Part shown: one piece after another, positions 730 to 13,948 of the stretch
How the letters are laid out: each line of letters begins with the position of its first letter
Numbering within the stretch: the first letter of the stretch is position 1
From: Candidatus Saccharimonadota bacterium
Lineage (GTDB): Archaea; Nanobdellota; Nanobdellia; Pacearchaeales; GW2011-AR1
Assembly (NCBI GenBank): GCA_049511795.1
Contig: JBEKXS010000001.1
Span: 240,001 to 272,000 of the forward strand
Length of the DNA: 32,000 nucleotides
Direction of reading: 5' to 3'
Translations under genes and position numbers: made by a program
Notes under the pieces: generated by a model
Database searches by the model: none
What the model saw: only the letters and a program-made list of their open reading frames with translations
Told to the model about the DNA's origin: nothing

Positions 730-802
730 TGGGGATGCCCGGATTTGAACCGGGGTCGCAAGGTCCCAAACCTTGAAGGCTACCAGGCTACCCCACATCC
801 CC
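730..802 (-). tRNA. tRNA-Pro (anticodon UGG)
   Basis: Hand-folded cloverleaf. The acceptor GGGGATG pairs with CATCCCC. The anticodon stem is CAAGG/CCTTG with loop TTTGGGA. The T arm is CCCGG-TTCAAAT-CCGGG. No CCA is encoded. Confidence 0.85.
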
Positions 803-841: not shown

Positions 842-1585
842 TTACTTCTTTTTCTTTGCCTCTTCAGCCTTTTTTTCAGGTTTCTTTTCTTCCACCTTTG
901 CAGCTTCAGCTGGCTTTGCTTCTCCTTCTTTTCCTGGAGCGATGGCTGCAGCTGCACCTTCAGTAGTTGTTGTTCCTGCAGCAGCGGCTGCAGCTGCTTC
1001 TGCAGCAGCCTTAGCAGCTTCTTCCTGTAACCTAATCTTTTCTTGTTCTGCCTGAACTTTAGCGAAATATTCTTGAATATTTTTCTTTTTCTCTTCTGAC
1101 ATCTTTGTCCTTTCTTCTGAAATTTCCTTGTCATACTTTCCAGCTTCAATATCCCTTATTACTTCAACTGGATTCTTGTTTTCAACGAGAACTCCAAGAG
1201 TTATGCATGTTCCCAAAACACTTTTTATTGCGTTTTTTAAATTTCTGCTCAACATATTTGGCAGTTTTGTTTTTGAGACAGAGATTATCTGTTCTATAGA
1301 AGCATTTGCAACTTTTGTCTTTTTTTGTAAGCCAGAACCTTTCTCAATTCCAAGCTCTTTTTTTAGCAATTCTGAAACAGGTGGTGAAAAAACTTTTATT
1401 TCGATATTTTTCGTTGAAACATCAATTTCAATTTCAACAGGAACTTTCATTCCTTTGAAATTCTCTGTTGCCTGATTTACTTTCTGAATAACCTGTTGAA
1501 TATTTATTCCGGCTGGCCCAAGCTTCTGGCTAAGTGCAGGACCTGGTTGCATGCTTCCGCCATCGACCAACATTTTAACTTGCAT
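842..1585 (-). CDS. rpl11: Ribosomal protein uL11 with a long low-complexity C-terminal extension
   Basis: The N-terminal ~160 aa are a typical uL11 (VDGGSMQPGPALSQKLGPAGINIQ...). The last ~87 aa are Glu/Lys coiled-coil followed by an Ala/Thr/Gly/Lys-rich tail. Confidence 0.9.
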   Translation of the reverse strand: MQVKMLVDGGSMQPGPALSQKLGPAGINIQQVIQKVNQATENFKGMKVPVEIEIDVSTKNIEIKVFSPPVSELLKKELGIEKGSGLQKKTKVANASIEQIISVSKTKLPNMLSRNLKNAIKSVLGTCITLGVLVENKNPVEVIRDIEAGKYDKEISEERTKMSEEKKKNIQEYFAKVQAEQEKIRLQEEAAKAAAEAAAAAAAGTTTTEGAAAAIAPGKEGEAKPAEAAKVEEKKPEKKAEEAKKKK

Positions 1586-2042
1586 TTTCTTCTTCTCCTT
1601 CGATTTCTTCTCTTCTTACTACGCGAACATTATCAATTTTGATTGTTACAGGCAAAGGAACAACTGCTCCAAGTAAACTGACAACTACTTCTTCCTTCTG
1701 CTTGTCAATTCTTAAAACTTTTGCTTTTTCACCCTTAAGTGTTGAACCGATTATTTCAACAATGTCGCCTTCTTTTATATCTATGTTTTCAACAGAAGGC
1801 TCCACCATATTTTTTATTTCTTCATAGGTTATTGTTTTTCCTATGATTCCCTTTACATAAGGAAGATTAAATACAGCTTCTTCAGCGCTTTCCCTGTCTT
1901 CTGCTTCCAAAAGAACATAGCCACGAAGGCCATGAGGCCTTAGGACAGCATATGCATTAAGATTCTTTTTCTCAATTCTATCTGCTATCATGTCGACTGC
2001 TTTCTCTTCCTTGTTCGTCGTGACTTTTATGATGAAAATCAT
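1575..2042 (-). CDS. spt5: Transcription elongation factor Spt5 (NusG)
   Basis: 155 aa with an NGN domain followed by a KOW motif (KEGDIVEIIGSTLKGEKAKVLRID). It sits immediately upstream of rpl11, the conserved arrangement, with an 11-nt overlap. Confidence 0.9.
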   Translation of the reverse strand: MIFIIKVTTNKEEKAVDMIADRIEKKNLNAYAVLRPHGLRGYVLLEAEDRESAEEAVFNLPYVKGIIGKTITYEEIKNMVEPSVENIDIKEGDIVEIIGSTLKGEKAKVLRIDKQKEEVVVSLLGAVVPLPVTIKIDNVRVVRREEIEGEEENAS

Positions 2043-2065
2043 TTGTTTTAGCTCCGTCTATGTCC

Positions 2066-2078
2066 TAACTTTTTAAGA
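2066..2078 (-). promoter_or_regulatory. Putative TATA box for spt5-rpl11
   Basis: The reverse strand reads TTCTTAAAAAGTT about 30 nt upstream of the ATG. A second TATA-like TTTATAAA lies at 2107-2116. Confidence 0.3.
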
Positions 2079-2119
2079 AATAGACAATATTAATTAAAGA
2101 TTTGGGTTTATAAAAGTTT

Positions 2120-2128
2120 GGTTAACTG
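2120..2128. repeat. Left copy of 9-bp direct repeat GGTTAACTG (putative target-site duplication)
   Basis: An identical 9-mer occurs at 5351-5359. Each copy lies immediately outside a terminal inverted repeat. Confidence 0.7.
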
Positions 2129-2159
2129 TGTATTGTTAACTCTAAGGGACTTTTTGATT
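2129..2159. repeat. Left terminal inverted repeat (IRL)
   Basis: TGTATTGTTAACTCTAAGGGACTTTTTGATT compared with the reverse complement of 5319-5350, TGTATTGTTAATTCTTCGGGACTTATTTGATT. By hand alignment there are 28 matches, 3 mismatches and 1 indel. Confidence 0.7.
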
Positions 2160-2188
2160 TGAAGTCCTAAAACCGAATAAGTAGAAAA

Positions 2189-2201
2189 GCTTTTAAATAA
2201 G
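2189..2201 (+). promoter_or_regulatory. Putative TATA box for the AbrB-like gene
   Basis: GCTTTTAAATAAG lies about 30 nt upstream of the ATG at 2227. Confidence 0.3.
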
Positions 2202-2226
2202 TCCAACTTAATTAAATAAGCGAAAA

Positions 2227-2466
2227 ATGACTATTAAAGACGTTCCAATTGTAGAGAAGAGGAAGCTTGTTGCTTCTGGCTCATCCGTTATGTTAGTTGT
2301 GCCTAAGCAGTGGCTTGAAGAAAACGGATTAGACAAAGGGGACGAAGTTTTAATGGTAGCAAATGGAGATTTATCATTCAAGAAAATGACAAAAGAAAAT
2401 GTAGATAAGATTAGAAATCAATTAGCAAATCATACTCAAACGAGTTCCTTAGCAACGGAGCCGTAG
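2227..2466 (+). CDS. AbrB/SpoVT/MazE-type DNA-binding protein (antitoxin-like regulator)
   Basis: 79 aa. The N-terminus VASGSSVMLVVPKQWLEENGLDKGDEVLMV matches the swapped-hairpin SpoVT-AbrB pattern. Confidence 0.7.
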   Translation: MTIKDVPIVEKRKLVASGSSVMLVVPKQWLEENGLDKGDEVLMVANGDLSFKKMTKENVDKIRNQLANHTQTSSLATEP

Positions 2467-2655
2467 AAACCTGCAGGTTTTGAAGCACGTGGAAAATCGA
2501 TAAGACGTTATTGAAATGTTTGAATTTCCTTGGGAGGGGAGAGGAAAAACGCTTGTTTGAGTGGCTTTAAGAATTATTATAAAAATTTGGCACTCATAAA
2601 TTACTTAACATCATTAAGTATATATATTTTTGTTTTTTTGCCTTTTTAAACCCTT

Positions 2656-2814
2656 TTAATCACCCTTTTTCTTTTTAGGCTCTTTGTCCCAACGAGCACT
2701 TTTACATTTAGGGCAAGTTAGAGGGCGTTCATCTCCACGAGAAAACCAAACATGACTACATTTATTGCATCTATAGGCGGTCTTCCCAAACTCTTTAATT
2801 TTTATTTCAGCCAT
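2656..2814 (-). CDS. Small zinc-ribbon protein (hypothetical)
   Basis: 52 aa from the internal Met (MAEIKIKEFGKTAYRCNKCSHVWFSRGDERPLTCPKCKSARWDKEPKKKKGD), with two CxxC pairs. A TATA-like box about 25 nt upstream of this Met supports the short form. Confidence 0.6.
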   Translation of the reverse strand: MAEIKIKEFGKTAYRCNKCSHVWFSRGDERPLTCPKCKSARWDKEPKKKKGD

Positions 2815-2834
2815 ATATTCTGTAGGTAATAATA

Positions 2835-2845
2835 CTTTATAAATC
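2835..2845 (-). promoter_or_regulatory. Putative TATA box for the zinc-ribbon gene
   Basis: The reverse strand reads GATTTATAAAG about 25 nt upstream of the ATG at 2814. Confidence 0.3.
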
Positions 2846-2909
2846 TTCCTTAATAGAGAAAGGTTTATATAGTAAGGTATACTCAATAGAGTAAGGTTAA
2901 TTAAGTAAT

Positions 2910-3821
2910 ATGGAACAAAACAAAAACGATATAGAATATAAAAAAGTATTGAAGTGTGTTAATTGTAATTCTGAAAATATAATAAAGAGGGGGCAAAGGC
3001 AAACACAGAATAGAGGAATAATTCAAAGATATGGCTGTCAAGATTGTAATAAACGTTTTGTAATTGATGATGGTTTTTTCAAGATGAAAAATACACCACA
3101 GAAAGTTACCTTGTGCTTGGATTTGTTTTATAGAGGTATTTCTACAAGAAAAGTCCAAGAACATTTACAAGCTTTCTATCCTCACAATTCTTCTAATGTT
3201 TCTATCTATAAATGGATTGTAAAATATTCTAAAATGATTTCTAAATTTACAGATAATCTAAAATTGAAAGTTGGAAAGGAATTACAGGTTGATGAGGTTG
3301 AGTATAGAGTAAATAAGAAGAAAGCATTTTTTATTGATACTATAGATACAGAAACAAGATTTATGGTTGCTTCTGAATTTAGTAGAAGTAGAAGAACAAA
3401 AGAACTAAAATATGTAATCAAAAAAGCAAAAGACAAAACAGATAACCAAATTCAAATATGCACAACAGATGGATTTTACGCATATCATAAAGCCGTCAAA
3501 TCTGTTTTCGGTTACAACAACAAATTAGGAAAATATAATGTAACTCACAATATTGTTACTCAATTAAAAAACGAGGGCTTTAATCACAAAGTTGAAAGAA
3601 TGCACAGCAATATTAGGGCAAGAACAAAAACTTTCAGGGGCTTTGGTTCTATCAAAGGAGCAAATGCAGTTATGAAAGGGTATGAAACTTACTACAATTT
3701 CATAAGAAAACATCAGGCTATAAACTGCTGTCCTTATGAATTGGCTCTGCCTGAATTAAAACTCGGCTTGAATAAGTGGCACGACCTAATTAAACTTTCA
3801 AAGCAAACCCAAAGTATTTAA
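2910..3821 (+). CDS. DDE transposase with N-terminal zinc finger (IS6/IS240-like or IS1-like)
   Basis: 303 aa. It has an N-terminal CxxC...CxxC, then candidate catalytic residues LQVDEVEY, ICTTDGFYAY and NHKVERMHSNIRARTKTFRGFGS...YNFIRKHQAI. That C-terminal pattern resembles the IS6/IS240 DDE domain. Confidence 0.75.
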   Translation: MEQNKNDIEYKKVLKCVNCNSENIIKRGQRQTQNRGIIQRYGCQDCNKRFVIDDGFFKMKNTPQKVTLCLDLFYRGISTRKVQEHLQAFYPHNSSNVSIYKWIVKYSKMISKFTDNLKLKVGKELQVDEVEYRVNKKKAFFIDTIDTETRFMVASEFSRSRRTKELKYVIKKAKDKTDNQIQICTTDGFYAYHKAVKSVFGYNNKLGKYNVTHNIVTQLKNEGFNHKVERMHSNIRARTKTFRGFGSIKGANAVMKGYETYYNFIRKHQAINCCPYELALPELKLGLNKWHDLIKLSKQTQSI

Positions 3822-3823
3822 AA

Positions 3824-5311
3824 ATGAAAAGAACTAATAAGAAATTAATGGAAACAAATGTGATTTATTGTGGAGATAGTCTTGATATTATGAAAGATTC
3901 ACAAAGATTTCCTGATGAAAGTGTTGATTTAATCTATCTTGACCCTCCCTTTTTCTCACAAAAACATTATGAAGATTTTTGGATAAAAGACAAAACTTCT
4001 AAAGTTGGTTTTTCAGATAAAGATTGGGAAAAATTAAGACATTCAATTAATCCAACCACACTAAAAGAATATGAGGAAATAGAAAAAAGATGGAAAGGTG
4101 GGCATCACGGAATTTATGTTTATATTGCATATATGAGGGAAAGATTAGAACAATGTTGGAGAGTTCTTAAAAAAACAGGAAGTATTTATCTGCATTGTGA
4201 TTCACATGCTGGACATTATCTTAAAATGATGATGGATGAGGTTTTTGGTTATGATAATTTCAAAAATGATATAGTTTGGAAAAGAACACATGCACACAAT
4301 GACCCTCAAAGATTTGGAGCAAATTCGGATAGAATTTTATTTTATACCAAATCAAATGAGTATACATTTAACATACAATATTCTAAATATGATAAAGAGT
4401 ATATTGATAATTTTTTCAAAGGAAAAGATGAAAGAGGAGTTTATCAATTAGTTATTTTAACTGGACCGAATATAAATCCAAATGACCCTACTTGGAAAAA
4501 GTATAACCCTGCTCAATCTGGAAGAAGTTGGTCTGTTCCAAAAAGAATTGTCAATAAGTTAGTAGGAAAAGAAAAAGCTTCTAAAATGTCTATTAAGGAA
4601 AGATTAGATTTACTTTATGAAAATAATTATATTGAAATAAGTAAAAACGGAGTTCCTCGTTTTAAACAATATTTGGATGATATGGAGGGGGTTCCGCTTC
4701 AAGAAATATGGATAGATATTCCTCCAATAAGCTCTAACTCAAATGAAAGGTTAGGTTATCCAACACAAAAACCAGAAGCTCTAATGGAAAGGATAATTAA
4801 GTCAAGTTCTAATGAAAATGATATTATTTTAGACCCATTTTGTGGCTGTGGAACCACTCTTGCAGTTGCTAAAAAATTAAATAGAAAGTTTATTGGCGTT
4901 GATATTTCAAGAACTGCCTGTGATGTAATGCAGAAAAGGGTTGGTGGGAAAGTTATTGGTGGAGAAAGTGAAGAAGAACTAAGAAAAATGGAACCCAACG
5001 AATTTGCAAGATTATTAGTTGTTGAGAAATTAAAGGGAACAATAAACCCAAAAAAATCTGGAGATATGGGTATAGATGGTTGGATTGAATTTATGACTAT
5101 CCCTGTTCAAGTGAAAAGATGGGGGCATAAAGTAGGCAGACCCGAAATTGATAAATTCAAGACAGCGATTGAAAGAGAACATAAAAAGAAAGGGTTGATT
5201 CTTGCTTTTGATTTTAGCAAAGATTGTTATGAAGAAGTTGAAAGAATAAAACACGAAGATAAAATAGATATTCAATTAAAAAGTGTAAAAGAGATTTTTA
5301 ATCACGATTAA
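3824..5311 (+). CDS. DNA methyltransferase (N6-adenine/N4-cytosine, beta-class order) fused to a C-terminal Mrr-type restriction endonuclease domain
   Basis: Motif IV DPPF is at nt 3941-3952 and motif I DPFCGCGTT at nt 4832-4858, so IV precedes I. The C-terminal ~110 aa carry GDMGIDG...VQVKRW, a PD-(D/E)xK (D...QxK) Mrr_cat signature. The start codon lies 2 nt after the transposase stop. Confidence 0.8.
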   Translation: MKRTNKKLMETNVIYCGDSLDIMKDSQRFPDESVDLIYLDPPFFSQKHYEDFWIKDKTSKVGFSDKDWEKLRHSINPTTLKEYEEIEKRWKGGHHGIYVYIAYMRERLEQCWRVLKKTGSIYLHCDSHAGHYLKMMMDEVFGYDNFKNDIVWKRTHAHNDPQRFGANSDRILFYTKSNEYTFNIQYSKYDKEYIDNFFKGKDERGVYQLVILTGPNINPNDPTWKKYNPAQSGRSWSVPKRIVNKLVGKEKASKMSIKERLDLLYENNYIEISKNGVPRFKQYLDDMEGVPLQEIWIDIPPISSNSNERLGYPTQKPEALMERIIKSSSNENDIILDPFCGCGTTLAVAKKLNRKFIGVDISRTACDVMQKRVGGKVIGGESEEELRKMEPNEFARLLVVEKLKGTINPKKSGDMGIDGWIEFMTIPVQVKRWGHKVGRPEIDKFKTAIEREHKKKGLILAFDFSKDCYEEVERIKHEDKIDIQLKSVKEIFNHD

Positions 5312-5318
5312 TTTTTTT
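5312..5318 (+). terminator. Oligo-T tract after the methyltransferase gene
   Basis: A T7 run directly follows the stop codon. Archaeal terminators are oligo-T tracts. Confidence 0.3.
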
Positions 5319-5350
5319 AATCAAATAAGTCCCGAAGAATTAACAATACA
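5319..5350. repeat. Right terminal inverted repeat (IRR)
   Basis: It is the reverse-complement match to 2129-2159 (see IRL). Confidence 0.7.
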
Positions 5351-5359
5351 GGTTAACTG
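5351..5359. repeat. Right copy of 9-bp direct repeat GGTTAACTG (putative target-site duplication)
   Basis: Identical to 2120-2128. It abuts the secE stop codon (5360-5362 on the minus strand). Confidence 0.7.
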
Positions 5360-5542
5360 TTAACTGAAAAATAATAGTTTAATAATAACTGCTATGAGGA
5401 ATCCTATTGCTCCGAGAAGTAAAACACCTATTGCAGAAACCTTGGCAACCATTTCAAATTCTTTTTTTGAAGGCTTTTTCAGTACAAGCCAGACTCTCTT
5501 TGATTTCTCGTAAAATGCTTTAAGCCTTTCTGTTAATACCAT
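5360..5542 (-). CDS. secE: Protein translocase subunit SecE (Sec61 gamma)
   Basis: 60 aa with an amphipathic N-terminus and a single C-terminal TM helix (VSAIGVLLLGAIGFLIAVIIKLLFF). It holds the conserved position between ftsZ and nusG. Confidence 0.8.
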   Translation of the reverse strand: MVLTERLKAFYEKSKRVWLVLKKPSKKEFEMVAKVSAIGVLLLGAIGFLIAVIIKLLFFS

Positions 5543-5562
5543 ATCTTAAATAAAATCGCCTG

Positions 5563-5574
5563 GTTTTTAAAAGT
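5563..5574 (-). promoter_or_regulatory. Putative TATA box for secE
   Basis: The reverse strand reads CTTTTAAAAACC about 25 nt upstream of the ATG, which suggests a leaderless transcript. Confidence 0.3.
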
Positions 5575-5587
5575 TTAGAAAACAAAA

Positions 5588-6673
5588 TCATTCAAAAAAT
5601 TCTATGCCCAACTCTTCCTCAATTTCACCGTGCTTGATTGTTTCCATAGTTTCTCCAGAGCCCATAATCTGGGAACTTTTAACGCCTGTAACTATGAGAA
5701 GAACACGGATTGATTTTTCCATGTCAGGAGAAATTTGTGCACCCCAAATTAATTTTGCTTCTGGATTTAGTTTTGTTCCTATTGATTCAATGATAACTTT
5801 GCATTCGTCAAGAGTCATTTCAGGGCCGCCAATTATATTGACAAGGGAACCTGTTGCATTTGAAATATCAACATCTAAAAGAGGGTTGCTTATTGCTTTT
5901 TCAACAGCCTCAATTGCCCTGTTTGTGCTGTCTGATTCTCCCATACCAATAAGAGAAACGCCTCCATCAACCATTACTGCTTTTACATCTGCAAAATCAA
6001 GATTTACAAGCCCTGCTGTTGTTACAAGTTCTGTAACTCCCTTTACAGCATTTGTCAAAATTTCATCAGCGATTTTGAAAGCCGTGTGAAGCGGCAAATC
6101 AGGCGCAAGTTCCAGAAGTTTGTCATTAGGAATAACTATCAAAGTATCGACGACAGATTCCAGCTTGTCAAGTCCATTCATTGCGTTCTCAATTCTTTTT
6201 TTACCTTCTATAGTAAAAGGCAATGTTACAACACCAATAACTAATGCTCCCTGCTTCCTTGCAAGAGATGCAACAACAGGGGCTGCTCCTGTTCCTGTTC
6301 CTCCGCCCAAACCGCATGTAATGAAAATCATATCGCTGCCTGCAATTTTTTTCTTTATTTCTGATTCTGATTCTTTTGCAGCTTCTTCTCCGACTTTTGG
6401 ATTGCTTCCTGCTCCAAGACCCTGCGTTAATTCACGACCAATGAGAATTTTCTGGTCAGCTGTACTGTATAAAAGGTCCTGAGCATCTGTATTTATTGCA
6501 ATTAATTCTCCTCCTTTAATTCCGATTTCCTTCATCCTACTTAATGAATTTCCTCCTCCTCCACCAACACCTATTACTTTTATTTTTGCAGCTTGCTTCT
6601 TAATAAGCTCTTCAAGTTCCTTGTCAATCTCTTTTACATCAGAAGTAAGATCTGTTTCATAAACATCTGCCAT
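5588..6673 (-). CDS. ftsZ: Cell division GTPase FtsZ
   Basis: 361 aa with the tubulin signatures VIGVGGGGGN and GLGGGTGTGAAPV. Confidence 0.95.
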   Translation of the reverse strand: MADVYETDLTSDVKEIDKELEELIKKQAAKIKVIGVGGGGGNSLSRMKEIGIKGGELIAINTDAQDLLYSTADQKILIGRELTQGLGAGSNPKVGEEAAKESESEIKKKIAGSDMIFITCGLGGGTGTGAAPVVASLARKQGALVIGVVTLPFTIEGKKRIENAMNGLDKLESVVDTLIVIPNDKLLELAPDLPLHTAFKIADEILTNAVKGVTELVTTAGLVNLDFADVKAVMVDGGVSLIGMGESDSTNRAIEAVEKAISNPLLDVDISNATGSLVNIIGGPEMTLDECKVIIESIGTKLNPEAKLIWGAQISPDMEKSIRVLLIVTGVKSSQIMGSGETMETIKHGEIEEELGIEFFE

Positions 6674-9907: not shown

Positions 9908-9920
9908 AAAGTTTATAAAT
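9908..9920 (+). promoter_or_regulatory. Putative TATA box for the rpl1-rpl10-rpl12 operon
   Basis: AAAGTTTATAAAT lies about 95 nt upstream of the rpl1 ATG. That implies an unusually long leader. Confidence 0.3.
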
Positions 9921-10010
9921 GGAGTTTATTTCCTGATTTTGCCGATTGAACCATGTCGTTTGCACATATGTTCTATGGTGTAGGCGCGTAAAATGGGAGG
10001 CAAATAAGAA

Positions 10011-10649
10011 ATGGAACAGAAAGAAATAGAAAAAGAACTGGAAAATGCATTAGTTGAACTAAGAAAAAATGAAGAGAGAAAATTCAACCAGACAGTTGAC
10101 TTAATATTAAATCTACAGAAATTTGACCCAAAGAAAAACCAGATAAATATTTTTGTAAATGTTCCCTTCAGGATAAAGGACAAAAAAATCTGCGGTTTTT
10201 TCGAGACAAAGCAGAAATCTGTAGAAACAATAACTCCAAGCGATTTCAAGAGTTATTCTGAGAAAACTGCGTTGAAAAAGCTTGTCAAGAGGTTTGATTT
10301 CTTCATCGCACAGGCGAGCGTAATGCCAAAGGTTGCAAGCACATTCGGTAAAGTTCTTGGTCCTGCGGGAAAAATGCCATCACCCGCTATGGGAATATTA
10401 ATGGATGTTAGTGATAAAGAAATAGAGGAGATAAAGGAGAAAATAAGCAACAGCCTAAGAATAAGAATAAAAGAGCCAAGCGTAAAACTTGCAATAGGAA
10501 AGCAAAGCATGAAAGACAAGGAGATTATAGAAAATGTAATGACTGTTTACAATGCAGTTCTAAAGGTAATGCCAAAGGGAAATGACAACATGAGAAACAT
10601 AGAGATAAAATTCACAATGACTAAACCACAAAAGGTGAGGATAAAGTAA
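10011..10649 (+). CDS. rpl1: Ribosomal protein uL1
   Basis: 212 aa with a typical uL1 sequence (FNQTVDLILNL...FDFFIAQASVMPKV...LGPAGKMP). It heads the L1-L10-L12 operon. Confidence 0.9.
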   Translation: MEQKEIEKELENALVELRKNEERKFNQTVDLILNLQKFDPKKNQINIFVNVPFRIKDKKICGFFETKQKSVETITPSDFKSYSEKTALKKLVKRFDFFIAQASVMPKVASTFGKVLGPAGKMPSPAMGILMDVSDKEIEEIKEKISNSLRIRIKEPSVKLAIGKQSMKDKEIIENVMTVYNAVLKVMPKGNDNMRNIEIKFTMTKPQKVRIK

Positions 10650-10650
10650 A

Positions 10651-11502
10651 ATGGCAGCAAAAAAACCAAAAAGCACTGTGAATGACAAGACAGCGCACGT
10701 GTCTGAAAGAAAGAAAAATGTCGTTGCAGAGCTTTCAGATTTGATAAAAAACAAGAAAACAATACTTGTAGCTTCAATAAAAAACATTCCTTCTTCCCAA
10801 TACCAAGAAATCTCGAAAAAATTAAGGGGAAAAGCTGTTGTGAAGGTTCCTAAGAAGAATATAATTTTCATGGCTTTGGAAAAATCAGGAGTAAGCGGGC
10901 TGAAAGAATTGGAGAGCTACATAAAAGACAGTAGCGCAATACTTTTCTCAGACGAAGATTCTTTTGACCTAGCTGCAGAATTGATAAACAAAAAAAGCCC
11001 TGCAAAGGCAAAGTCGGGACAGGAAGCAATGTCTGACATTGAAATTCCGGAAGGACCTACTGACCTTATACCTGGACCTGCAATATCTGAGCTTGGCGCT
11101 CTTGGAATAAAAATCCAGATAGAAAAGGGAAAAATAACAATCAAAGAACCTAAAGTTATTGCAAAAACTGGAGAAAAAATATCTGCCGGAGCTGCAGACA
11201 TGCTAAACAAGCTTGGAATACTTCCTTTCTCAATAGGATTTGTTCCTGTAGCTGCATTTGATTTGAAAGAGAAAAAACTTTACTTGGAAATCAGAATAGA
11301 CAGGGAAAAAACAATTTCAGACTTGAAAACAGCTTTTTCAAAATCTCTTGTATTTGCAGTAAAAATTGCATATCCTAATAAAGAAACAATAAAATTCCTG
11401 ATTGCGAAAGCAGGAATGCAGGAAAGAGCAATTGAAAAACTCACACTCACACAAACTAAATCAGAAGAGGTTAATACTCAACAAAATTCTCAGGAGGTTT
11501 AA
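10651..11502 (+). CDS. rpl10: Ribosomal protein uL10 (P0), short form
   Basis: 283 aa with a uL10 N-terminal domain, sitting between rpl1 and rpl12. It ends ...NTQQNSQEV without the acidic/GLxALFG stalk tail. Confidence 0.85.
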
Positions 11503-11503
11503 A

Positions 11504-11794
11504 ATGGAGTATATATACGCAGCGCTTTTGTTGCACAAACTTGGGAAAGAAGTAAATGAAGCAAATCTGAAAAAAGTTATTTCTGCTTCAGGAATTGAGC
11601 CAGATGACTCAAAAGTTAAGTCCCTTGTTGCAAGCCTTAAAGGTGTCGACATAACAAAAGAGCTTGAAAATGCGGCTTTGGTTTCAGCAGCTCCTGCAGC
11701 AGGCAGTGGAGCAAAGGAAGAAAAGAAAGAAGAAAAGCCTAAAGAAGAACCTAAAGCAGCAGCTGCAGAAGGTCTCAGCGCGCTCTTCGGATAA
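11504..11794 (+). CDS. rpl12: Ribosomal stalk protein P1 (archaeal L12)
   Basis: [19 protein letters not shown]... followed by an Ala/Glu/Lys hinge and terminal GLSALFG. The start is set at the internal Met. GGAGG lies about 8 nt upstream. Confidence 0.9.
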
Positions 11795-11953: not shown

Positions 11954-12025
11954 GCCTCAGTAGCTCAGTGGCAGAGCAATTGCTTCGTAAGCAATAGGTC
12001 GCAGGTTCAAATCCTGCCTGAGGCT
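11954..12025 (+). tRNA. tRNA-Thr (anticodon CGU)
   Basis: Hand-folded cloverleaf. The acceptor is GCCTCAG/CTGAGGC and the D arm GCTC-AGTGGCA-GAGC. The anticodon stem is ATTGC/GCAAT with loop TTCGTAA. The T arm is GCAGG-TTCAAAT-CCTGC. Confidence 0.85.
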
Positions 12026-13867: not shown

Positions 13868-13948
13868 CGCCCCCGCCAGGAATCGAACCTGGAGGCCCTT
13901 ACGGGCCCGGTTCTCAAGACCGGTGCAATACCATTATGCGACGGAGGC
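13868..13948 (-). tRNA. tRNA-Ser (anticodon UGA)
   Basis: Hand-folded. The acceptor is GCCTCCG/CGGGGGC. The anticodon stem is CCGGT/ACCGG with loop CTTGAGA. A long variable arm (GCCC-GTAA-GGGC) is present, and the T arm is CCAGG-TTCGATT-CCTGG. Confidence 0.85.

Follow-up and report, generated by a model that had tools for sequence, protein, structure and literature searches.

The window analysed here, a 32,000 nt stretch of contig JBEKXS010000001.1 (positions 240,001 to 272,000 of the forward strand), carries a cleanly bounded transposon of 3222 bp at window positions 2129–5350, the last gene of which encodes a DNA methyltransferase fused to an Mrr-type nuclease domain. The best explanation, held as a whole with slightly better than even confidence, is that the element is an autonomous member of a so far undescribed transposon family, related to IS6 and IS1 and abundant in DPANN archaea, and that its fusion protein is a putative compact, single-chain combination of methylase and nuclease carried as restriction–modification (R-M) cargo. 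An initial annotation, made from the sequence alone, had described the gene as transposon cargo; that observation is confirmed, and the interpretation given with it is partly supported. The transposon family, with its fixed transposase–methylase junction and its R-M cargo, is a more notable result than the fusion.

The element is recognised as a transposon because it ends in terminal inverted repeats (IRs) that are enclosed by a 9 bp target duplication (Table 1), and the fusion gene lies within these boundaries. A degenerate pattern built from both arms of the IR matches the window only twice, at the left and right ends of the element (IRL and IRR), against a chance expectation of 0.01. Only four open reading frames (ORFs) are found between the ends, i.e., those for an AbrB/MazE-like protein, a small Zn-ribbon protein, the transposase and the fusion, so that the earlier statement that the element holds no separate restriction or specificity gene is upheld. 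The transposase matches Pfam DDE_Tnp_IS240 with 47 bits (cut-off 27). Its score against NCBIfam IS6 (90.9 bits) falls short of the cut-off of 125 and is accompanied by a secondary IS1 match, and its N-terminus scores 24.1 bits against the IS1/IS1595 Zn domain, also short of the cut-off (28). Residues D128, D187, E229 and R236 are invariant among 24 aligned transposases. The AbrB/MazE-like protein, a possible regulator, matches MazE_antitoxin (5.6e-07, 29.8 bits, cut-off 24.7), and elements L051 and L079 have homologues at the corresponding place (cluster c7). The Zn-ribbon ORF encodes either 52 aa from an ATG at 2814 or 76 aa from a TTG at 2886, and its position and orientation are kept in eight elements (cluster c2).

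Homologues of the transposase are numerous (1104 at E ≤ 1e-5), and those with a named source come mostly from Nanoarchaeota or Pacearchaeota. A search of viral contigs returned a single relative, and the family is therefore not mainly viral. It was sampled at 80 metagenomic loci and one viral locus, where transposases are 57–83% identical to that of the window. The IR sequence of the window, with 0–5 mismatches in 24 nt, occurs as inverted pairs around a transposase at more than 20 other loci. Exact 9 bp direct repeats, all of different sequence, border 19 of the 24 elements with readable flanks (20 elements when the window is included), and such differing duplications are the signature of independent transposition events. 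Both the boundaries of the element and its mobility are evident from these repeats. Across the family, elements are 2.2–4.8 kb long, have two to five genes besides the transposase inside their IRs, and follow a fixed layout of IRL, variable left cargo, divergent Zn-ribbon ORF, transposase, methyltransferase gene, optional right cargo and IRR.

Members of IS6 (IS26, IS257 and the archaeal ISH-/ISC-type elements) appear to share with this family a DDE_Tnp_IS240-type transposase with a D-D-E + K/R signature, short IRs and a short target duplication, and an N-terminal zinc finger is present in some IS6 clades as well as in the transposase of the window. A review of IS6 gives sizes of 0.7–1.7 kb, a single transposase ORF, 14 bp IRs, 8 bp duplications and just one member with a passenger gene, ISDsp3 (PMC7986276). 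The family of the window differs in its size of 2.2–4.8 kb, its IRs of 24–27 nt that start with TGTATTG, its 9 bp duplications and its two to five cargo genes, and the transposase of the window stays below the NCBIfam IS6 cut-off; it is related to IS6 but lies outside the IS6 definition. Literature searches found no paper on IS6-type elements with methylase or R-M passengers.

The tight, co-oriented junction of transposase and fusion genes, first noticed in the window, is found family-wide. In the window, the transposase stop codon (TAA, 3819–3821) is followed by AA and then by the ATG of the fusion gene at 3824, exactly as described in the initial annotation, which also gave the ORF limits and all motif positions correctly. 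A methyltransferase gene lies directly downstream of the transposase at 37 of 69 informative loci (one duplicate locus counted), and at all 21 informative loci where the transposase is at least 72% identical to that of the window. In 35 of 41 junctions, the methylase ATG lies −7 to +4 nt from the transposase stop, irrespective of methylase family, so that the TAA AA ATG arrangement of the window represents a trait of the family as a whole. Among 48 downstream ORFs that were classified, 16 encode C5, 14 N6_N4, 2 Dam-like (D12) and 4 gamma-class (N6_Mtase/Eco57I) methyltransferases. Three loci with transposases 78–82% identical have, directly downstream, an MT-A70 methylase together with a convergent MunI-like nuclease, a C5 methylase, and a 301 aa N6_N4 methylase together with a convergent 225 aa gene, respectively. 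Among transposases 75–83% identical, at least six methyltransferase types are found behind near-identical IRs. At two loci (L074, 1201–1312; L076, 2846–2957), a hydrophobic ORF of about 35 codons begins 1 nt past the transposase stop and takes up the 110 nt that precede the ATG of the methylase.

This family-wide coupling suggests a functional link between the two genes, and one of the roles first proposed for the fusion was that of a self-marking device, in which cargo methylation would mark the element or its ends and control transposase expression or end activity, the nuclease acting on the unmarked state. Dam methylation controls the transposition of IS10 and IS50 and provides the model. 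However, with C5, N6/N4, Dam-like, gamma-class and MT-A70 enzymes accompanying transposases 75–83% identical and near-identical IRs, no common methylation site is possible. The sites expected for Bsp6I-, MunI- and MvaI/BcnI-like cargo (GCNGC, CAATTG and CCWGG/CCSGG) are absent from the IRs of L036, L027 and L038, respectively, and homologues of the fusion are mostly found without any transposase, so that self-marking is a decidedly improbable role. A restriction-fold nuclease encoded straight after a DDE transposase is also reminiscent of TnsA and TnsB of Tn7. By analogy, the PD-(D/E)xK domain might cut the second strand at the element ends, turning the replicative transposition of IS6 type into cut-and-paste. 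Such a role is hardly credible, given that more than 35 sister elements transpose with ordinary methylases that have no nuclease domain, that the fusion family occurs widely and as solitary genes where there is no transposase, and that the nuclease is joined to a sequence-specific methylase and not to an end-binding protein.

A more ambitious proposal, speculative and on balance unlikely, is that the placement of the methylase near the transposase stop, kept despite at least six swaps of methylase family, is an adaptation through which transposase and R-M cargo are mutually dependent. The fusion would then be the most compact form of this arrangement and a new minimal class of restriction enzyme, with a beta-class methylase and a C-terminal nuclease. 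If so, the protective methylase would be expressed only via the transposase transcription unit, and silencing of that operon would expose the host to the nuclease of the element. R-M addiction would enforce ongoing expression of the transposase, and each new copy would arrive protected.

Cargo was surveyed by clustering and Pfam scans of the remaining genes inside complete elements, and R-M genes are found there repeatedly. Seven elements with C5 methylases carry a gene for a Bsp6I-like restriction endonuclease at their left end, and the transposase gene therefore lies between R and M. An MvaI/BcnI-like endonuclease is found with an N6_N4 methylase, a MunI-like endonuclease with an MT-A70 methylase, and one cargo gene encodes an 830 aa single chain with N6_Mtase and Methylase_S domains. 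Vsr genes are present in two sister elements (L042 and L050). The cargo of the element at L028 is a methyltransferase only. Taken together, these elements serve as carriers of defence genes, R-M genes among them. Defence-type cargo other than R-M is seen at L102 (1338–5884), at L050 (2523–7331) and at the left ends of L027 and L038; these genes encode an AAA_15/AAA_21 ATPase (416 aa) with a 205 aa partner, an ORC-CDC6-like/STAND NTPase (509 aa) and an AAA_16 protein (351 aa).

Two further groups of cargo genes are without a Pfam match. One encodes proteins of 177–204 aa just inside the left IR (L044, L049, L055 and L079) and is paired with N6_N4 methylases of 256–276 aa; the other is the convergent 225 aa gene of L030 (4131–4805), which stands where sister elements hold restriction genes. 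Since they share the position of sister restriction genes, both are candidates for new restriction endonucleases.

The nearest published concept to this R-M-carrying family is that of the scattered transposon-like mobile R-M units described by Furuta, Abe and Kobayashi 2010 (PMC2853133), which are isolated bacterial cases with 8 bp duplications. Common to both are R-M genes between imperfect IRs, a short target duplication and the idea of R-M systems as selfish mobile units. The published units are mostly without a recognisable active transposase, whereas the present family has its own transposase, conserved IRs and the fixed transposase–methylase junction.

The N-terminal part of the fusion protein is a methyltransferase, matching Pfam N6_N4_Mtase (PF01555) at 7e-49 and 167.2 bits (cut-off 26.7). 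Motif IV (DPPF, residues 40–43, nt 3941–3952) precedes motif I (DPFCGCGTT, residues 337–345, nt 4832–4858), which is the beta-class order, as had been claimed, and both motifs show little or no variation among 45 aligned sequences. The sequence resembles CcrM, M.BceJIV, MboIIA and Type III Mod proteins, and a full-length AlphaFold2 model (predicted local distance difference test (pLDDT) score 85.3, predicted TM-score (pTM) 0.78) gave EcoP15I Mod, M.BceJIV, MboIIA, CcrM and RsrI as its best fold matches by Foldseek (E 1e-22 to 1e-15). A motif IV of the form DPPF rather than SPPF points to N6-adenine methylation, and the target base is therefore probably N6-adenine.

The methyltransferase has two conserved halves, which are separated by a target-recognition domain (TRD) with a mean pairwise identity of 0.22, compared with 0.51–0.61 in the other three regions of the protein. 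Proteins from bacteria of the candidate phyla radiation that are about 50% identical to the window protein overall are nevertheless about 70% identical to it in the TRD, whereas close archaeal relatives are only about 20% identical there. Such mosaic variation is what the exchange of recognition domains produces in Type III mod and Type IIG genes.

The C-terminal domain matches Pfam Mrr_cat (PF04471) at 1.4e-10 and 41.7 bits (cut-off 21). It carries GDMGIDG (residues 413–419, nt 5060–5080) and VQVKRW (residues 428–433, nt 5105–5122), and across the 45 aligned sequences no variation is seen at D414, G416, D418, G419 and K431, and Q429 is kept in at least 90%. The D...QxK pattern is thus intact, in agreement with the initial annotation. 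Whole-protein sequence and fold searches of the PDB were dominated by the methylase, and the C-terminal domain was hence modelled and searched separately. A profile of the domain gave the Mrr-like nuclease domain of LlaBIII as the sole PDB match (E 0.015). The separate model (pLDDT 87) has its secondary structures in the order expected for a restriction-nuclease fold, and weak fold matches (E 6e-3 to 8e-2) were obtained to the Rpb5 N-domain, the FokI cleavage domain, EcoT38I, LlaBIII, AspBHI and AF1548, with FokI giving the top TM-score (0.63). A Vsr-like repair role for the domain was considered and rejected, as it is of the Mrr_cat and not of the Vsr type, and sister elements carry true Vsr as a gene of its own.

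Joining a methylase to an Mrr domain had been called functionally paradoxical, but Mrr_cat is only the catalytic module of Mrr. The modification-reading N-terminal domain is absent; a Pfam scan of the fusion found no Mrr_N or other modification-reading domain, and the N-terminal 370 residues are methyltransferase. Moreover, Type ISP enzymes already join an Mrr-like nuclease to a methylase. The founding members of the Mrr_cat family do restrict modified DNA (PMC3424549), and the MspJI-family enzyme AspBHI is among the fold matches, so the protein could be a Type IV-like nuclease that cuts foreign-modified DNA, with the methyltransferase writing a different, tolerated mark and the two activities being separate rather than a cognate R-M pair. 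That is improbable for a protein without Mrr_N, SRA or a similar reader, whose TRD is the sole DNA-recognition module and whose nuclease has its closest sequence match in a modification-blocked Type ISP enzyme.

The combination of N6_N4_Mtase and Mrr_cat is widespread. The best 120 matches to the fusion fall into more than 100 clusters, almost all of the 120 have both Pfam domains, and their sources include Woesearchaeota, Nanoarchaeota, Actinobacteria, Chlorobi and Pacebacteria, among others. Database names of the homologues are split between 'restriction endonuclease' and 'DNA methyltransferase', both of them putative labels. Outside the transposon family, homologues are solitary, without a conserved partner and mostly without a transposase; a genome scan with the fusion as the single query protein yielded only 11 loci and was of little value for context. 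The fusion is also carried by a second transposon lineage (L006), in which the final gene encodes a version that is 81% identical; the transposase there is only 34% identical to that of the window, the IRs are different and 45 nt long, and the duplication is of 8 bp (CGAACTGG). A third transposase–fusion pair is present at L115, a search of which turned up no IRs accompanied by a target duplication. A distant cultured relative (L117; NC_002679.1, 55097–56821; WP_044552088.1) is a solitary 574 aa protein of Mesorhizobium japonicum MAFF 303099 plasmid pMLa, with N6_N4_Mtase and NA-iREase1/Mrr_cat domains and with TSVK in place of VQVK, i.e., S for the Q of QxK. Other rhizobial plasmids and 'Candidatus Megaera' have similar genes.

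A 126 nt segment of L006 (7905–8030), which runs from the 3′ end of the transposase gene into the start of the fusion gene, recurs inverted with 75% identity at 9910–10035. This second segment is about 300 nt beyond the right end of the element, adjoins an HTH_3 gene that is also labelled PDDEXK_19 in the precomputed annotation, and may be the remnant of a second copy.

A single-chain R-M or addiction role, covering the first two of the functions originally suggested, is the best fit to the sister elements, where complete Type II R-M systems fill these slots. It is preferred because of this R-M slot, the variable recognition region, the intact nuclease residues, the self-sufficiency of the protein and its portability between transposons. 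The R-M reading predicts that the protein methylates a specific site, that its nuclease is active, that it restricts DNA and that its translation is coupled to that of the transposase. The transposase and fusion genes would be co-transcribed and probably translationally coupled; the methyltransferase–TRD module would bind a specific site and methylate resident DNA there; and the tethered nuclease domain would cut incoming DNA that is unmethylated. Cleavage would probably require a pair of enzyme molecules, as it does for FokI or Type ISP/IIG enzymes, and the outcome would be a compact defence or addiction function favouring retention of the element.

Several observations weigh against this reading. 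The C-terminal domain gave only weak structural matches, and the first-ranked of them, the Rpb5 N-domain, is not a nuclease. In PADLOC, whose models derive largely from REBASE, the fusion is matched only as a Type II/III methyltransferase; one of the matching models reaches into the Mrr region, and curators therefore treated relatives of the fusion as plain M genes. A PADLOC scan of the four element proteins gave methyltransferase models only and no other known defence system. The Mesorhizobium relative scores better against the 'inactive REase' family NA-iREase1 and its QxK is degenerate. At L115 the fusion is followed by a small PDDEXK_5 gene, and the fused domain there may not be the sole nuclease. 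The methylase-only cargo of L028 is a further point, as is the empty site of the insertion in the window, which was not recovered, no dedicated search having been made. The initial annotation had named, as something that would refute it, a common and characterised orphan methylase family with this architecture and no nuclease activity, and this applies in half: the architecture is common, as the clusters above show, but literature searches found no paper characterising it, with or without nuclease activity, nor is it, or any element of this kind, mentioned in a survey of archaeal R-M systems (PMC10609329) or in one of thaumarchaeal mobile elements (PMC6563490).

These same observations (methylase-only cargo, the M-gene class of the PADLOC/REBASE-type models, some relatives matching an inactive nuclease family and the lost Q of the Mesorhizobium protein) could be explained if the fusion were an orphan methyltransferase, with the Mrr-fold domain serving as a non-nuclease module for DNA binding or dimerisation, as does the C-terminal domain of CcrM, which is reported to bind DNA non-specifically (PMC6787082). 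The transposon would then spread methylation, for instance shielding element and host from other restriction systems or altering gene expression. This is a serious contender but unlikely. The invariance of D414, D418 and K431, and the conservation of Q429, in archaea and bacteria alike are hard to explain without catalysis or metal binding, and a hypervariable TRD that is swapped between lineages is typical of defence enzymes, not of conserved regulatory orphans.

As a putative R-M enzyme, the fusion resembles several known systems without matching any of them. In Type ISP enzymes (LlaGI, LlaBIII), an Mrr-family PD-QxK nuclease, a methyltransferase and a TRD are joined in one chain (PMC3874165); Type IIG/IIC enzymes, too, unite R, M and TRD in a single polypeptide. 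Type ISP proteins have about 1500 aa, an N-terminal nuclease, an ATP-dependent translocase and a gamma-class methyltransferase, whereas the window protein has 495 aa, a C-terminal nuclease, no motor domain and a beta-class methyltransferase. Known Type IIG/IIL enzymes likewise have an N-terminal nuclease and a gamma-class methyltransferase (PMC3185434). A small PD-(D/E)xK cleavage module attached to a separate sequence-recognition module is typical of the FokI, MmeI and BpuSI types; FokI, in contrast to the fusion, has no methyltransferase. The methyltransferase sequence and fold have their best matches in Type III Mod (EcoP15I) and in solitary beta-class enzymes (CcrM, M.BceJIV, MboIIA and RsrI), and the conserved N- and C-terminal halves around a variable central TRD recall Type III mod, but no gene for a Res helicase-nuclease is present in the element or adjoining it, and the nuclease domain is fused to the methyltransferase instead. 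The Mrr_cat domain with D...QxK is shared with E. coli Mrr and Type IV nucleases, and a methyltransferase replaces the N-terminal modification-sensing domain of Mrr. Mrr-like nuclease modules are also part of Type II enzymes and of effectors of the Lamassu and Avs systems.

The window consists of AT-rich archaeal DNA with genes for ribosomal proteins, spt5/nusG, secE, ftsZ and an aIF5A-type factor. On the minus strand around the insertion (window 1575–6673), spt5/nusG and secE are flanked by rpl11 on one side and by ftsZ on the other. The genes rpl1, rpl10 and rpl12 (10011–11794) are about 4.5 kb from the transposon, on the strand opposite to spt5/nusG and secE. An identical fusion protein is encoded on 16 contigs, and since the spt5/nusG–secE context is the same in 16 of 16, the insertion is fixed in that population. 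Several of the listed ORFs between about 500 and 1150 are mere other-frame overlaps of the tRNA-Pro gene and the L37ae and L11 genes.

Table 1. Features of the transposon, of its fusion gene and of the surrounding DNA (window coordinates; residues refer to the fusion protein).
Feature	Position	Strand	Remarks
Left target-site duplication copy, 9 bp, GGTTAACTG	2120–2128	.	Identical to 5351–5359
Left terminal inverted repeat (IRL), 27 nt, TGTATTGTTAACTCTAAGGGACTTTTT	2129–2155	+	Imperfect, 85% complementary to 5324–5350
AbrB/MazE-like (SpoVT-AbrB fold) gene, 79 aa, left-hand cargo	2227–2466	+	Pfam MazE_antitoxin
Small Zn-ribbon ORF	2656–2886	-	Divergent from transposase; weak Zn-ribbon Pfam matches only
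IS6-like DDE transposase, 303 aa, N-terminal CxxC...CxxC zinc ribbon	2910–3821	+	Pfam DDE_Tnp_IS240
Methyltransferase–Mrr fusion gene, 495 aa	3824–5311	+	Pfam N6_N4_Mtase and Mrr_cat
Beta-class N6/N4 DNA methyltransferase domain, residues 34–370	3923–4933	+	Pfam N6_N4_Mtase (PF01555)
Variable target-recognition region, residues ~186–295	4379–4708	+	Between conserved methyltransferase halves
Mrr_cat-type PD-(D/E)xK nuclease domain, residues 387–484	4982–5275	+	Pfam Mrr_cat (PF04471)
Right terminal inverted repeat (IRR), 27 nt	5324–5350	-	Begins 12 nt past fusion gene stop
Right target-site duplication copy, 9 bp, GGTTAACTG	5351–5359	.	Perfect match to 2120–2128
spt5/nusG	1575–2042	-	Left neighbour of transposon
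secE	5360–5542	-	Right neighbour of transposon
Predicted empty-site junction			...AAGTTTGGTTAACTG / TTAACTGAAAAATAA; single GGTTAACTG copy between spt5 and secE
tRNA-Pro-TGG	730–802		
tRNA-Thr-CGT	11954–12025		
tRNA-Ser-TGA	13868–13948		

Some of the sister loci show further arrangements of the element. At L027 (1796–7417), two elements stand head to tail, and the 9 bp repeat GTTTAATCG occurs three times, before 1796, at 3358–3366 and after 7417. The first of the two (1796–3357, 1.56 kb) has related IRs (TGTATTGTTAAGTTAATTGG) and no transposase, encoding only a 137 aa ORF and a MarR-like ORF of 92 aa, and looks like a non-autonomous relative at the same target. A minimal element of 2.37 kb is found at L028 (4546–6912), comprising the small Zn-ribbon ORF, the transposase and a C5 methylase between perfect 24 nt IRs without a target duplication. 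Its host contig is 34.7 kb long and labelled circular by VirSorter, and two more N6_N4 methylase genes and an HNH gene adjoin the element. Many short contigs (among L033–L048, L060 and L079) start or end 80–125 nt outside an IR, and in L034, L038, L043, L044, L060 and L079 the IR starts at positions 119–124, which suggests assembly breaks around polymorphic insertions.

The idea that R-M systems behave as mobile selfish elements is an old one, supported mostly by scattered cases. The present family, by contrast, is large and cleanly bounded: transposase homologues number in the hundreds and complete elements in the dozens, the standard cargo is an R-M system or a methylase, and the transposase gene forms part of the R-M operon. 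The mobility of R-M systems, the swapping of cargo and addiction are thereby opened to direct tests. The 495 aa fusion, if active, would be among the smallest self-contained R-M enzymes, and its swappable recognition region would be of interest as an enzyme scaffold. Genome-reduced DPANN archaea largely lack CRISPR, and the transposon family points to how these archaea may acquire and exchange defence genes.

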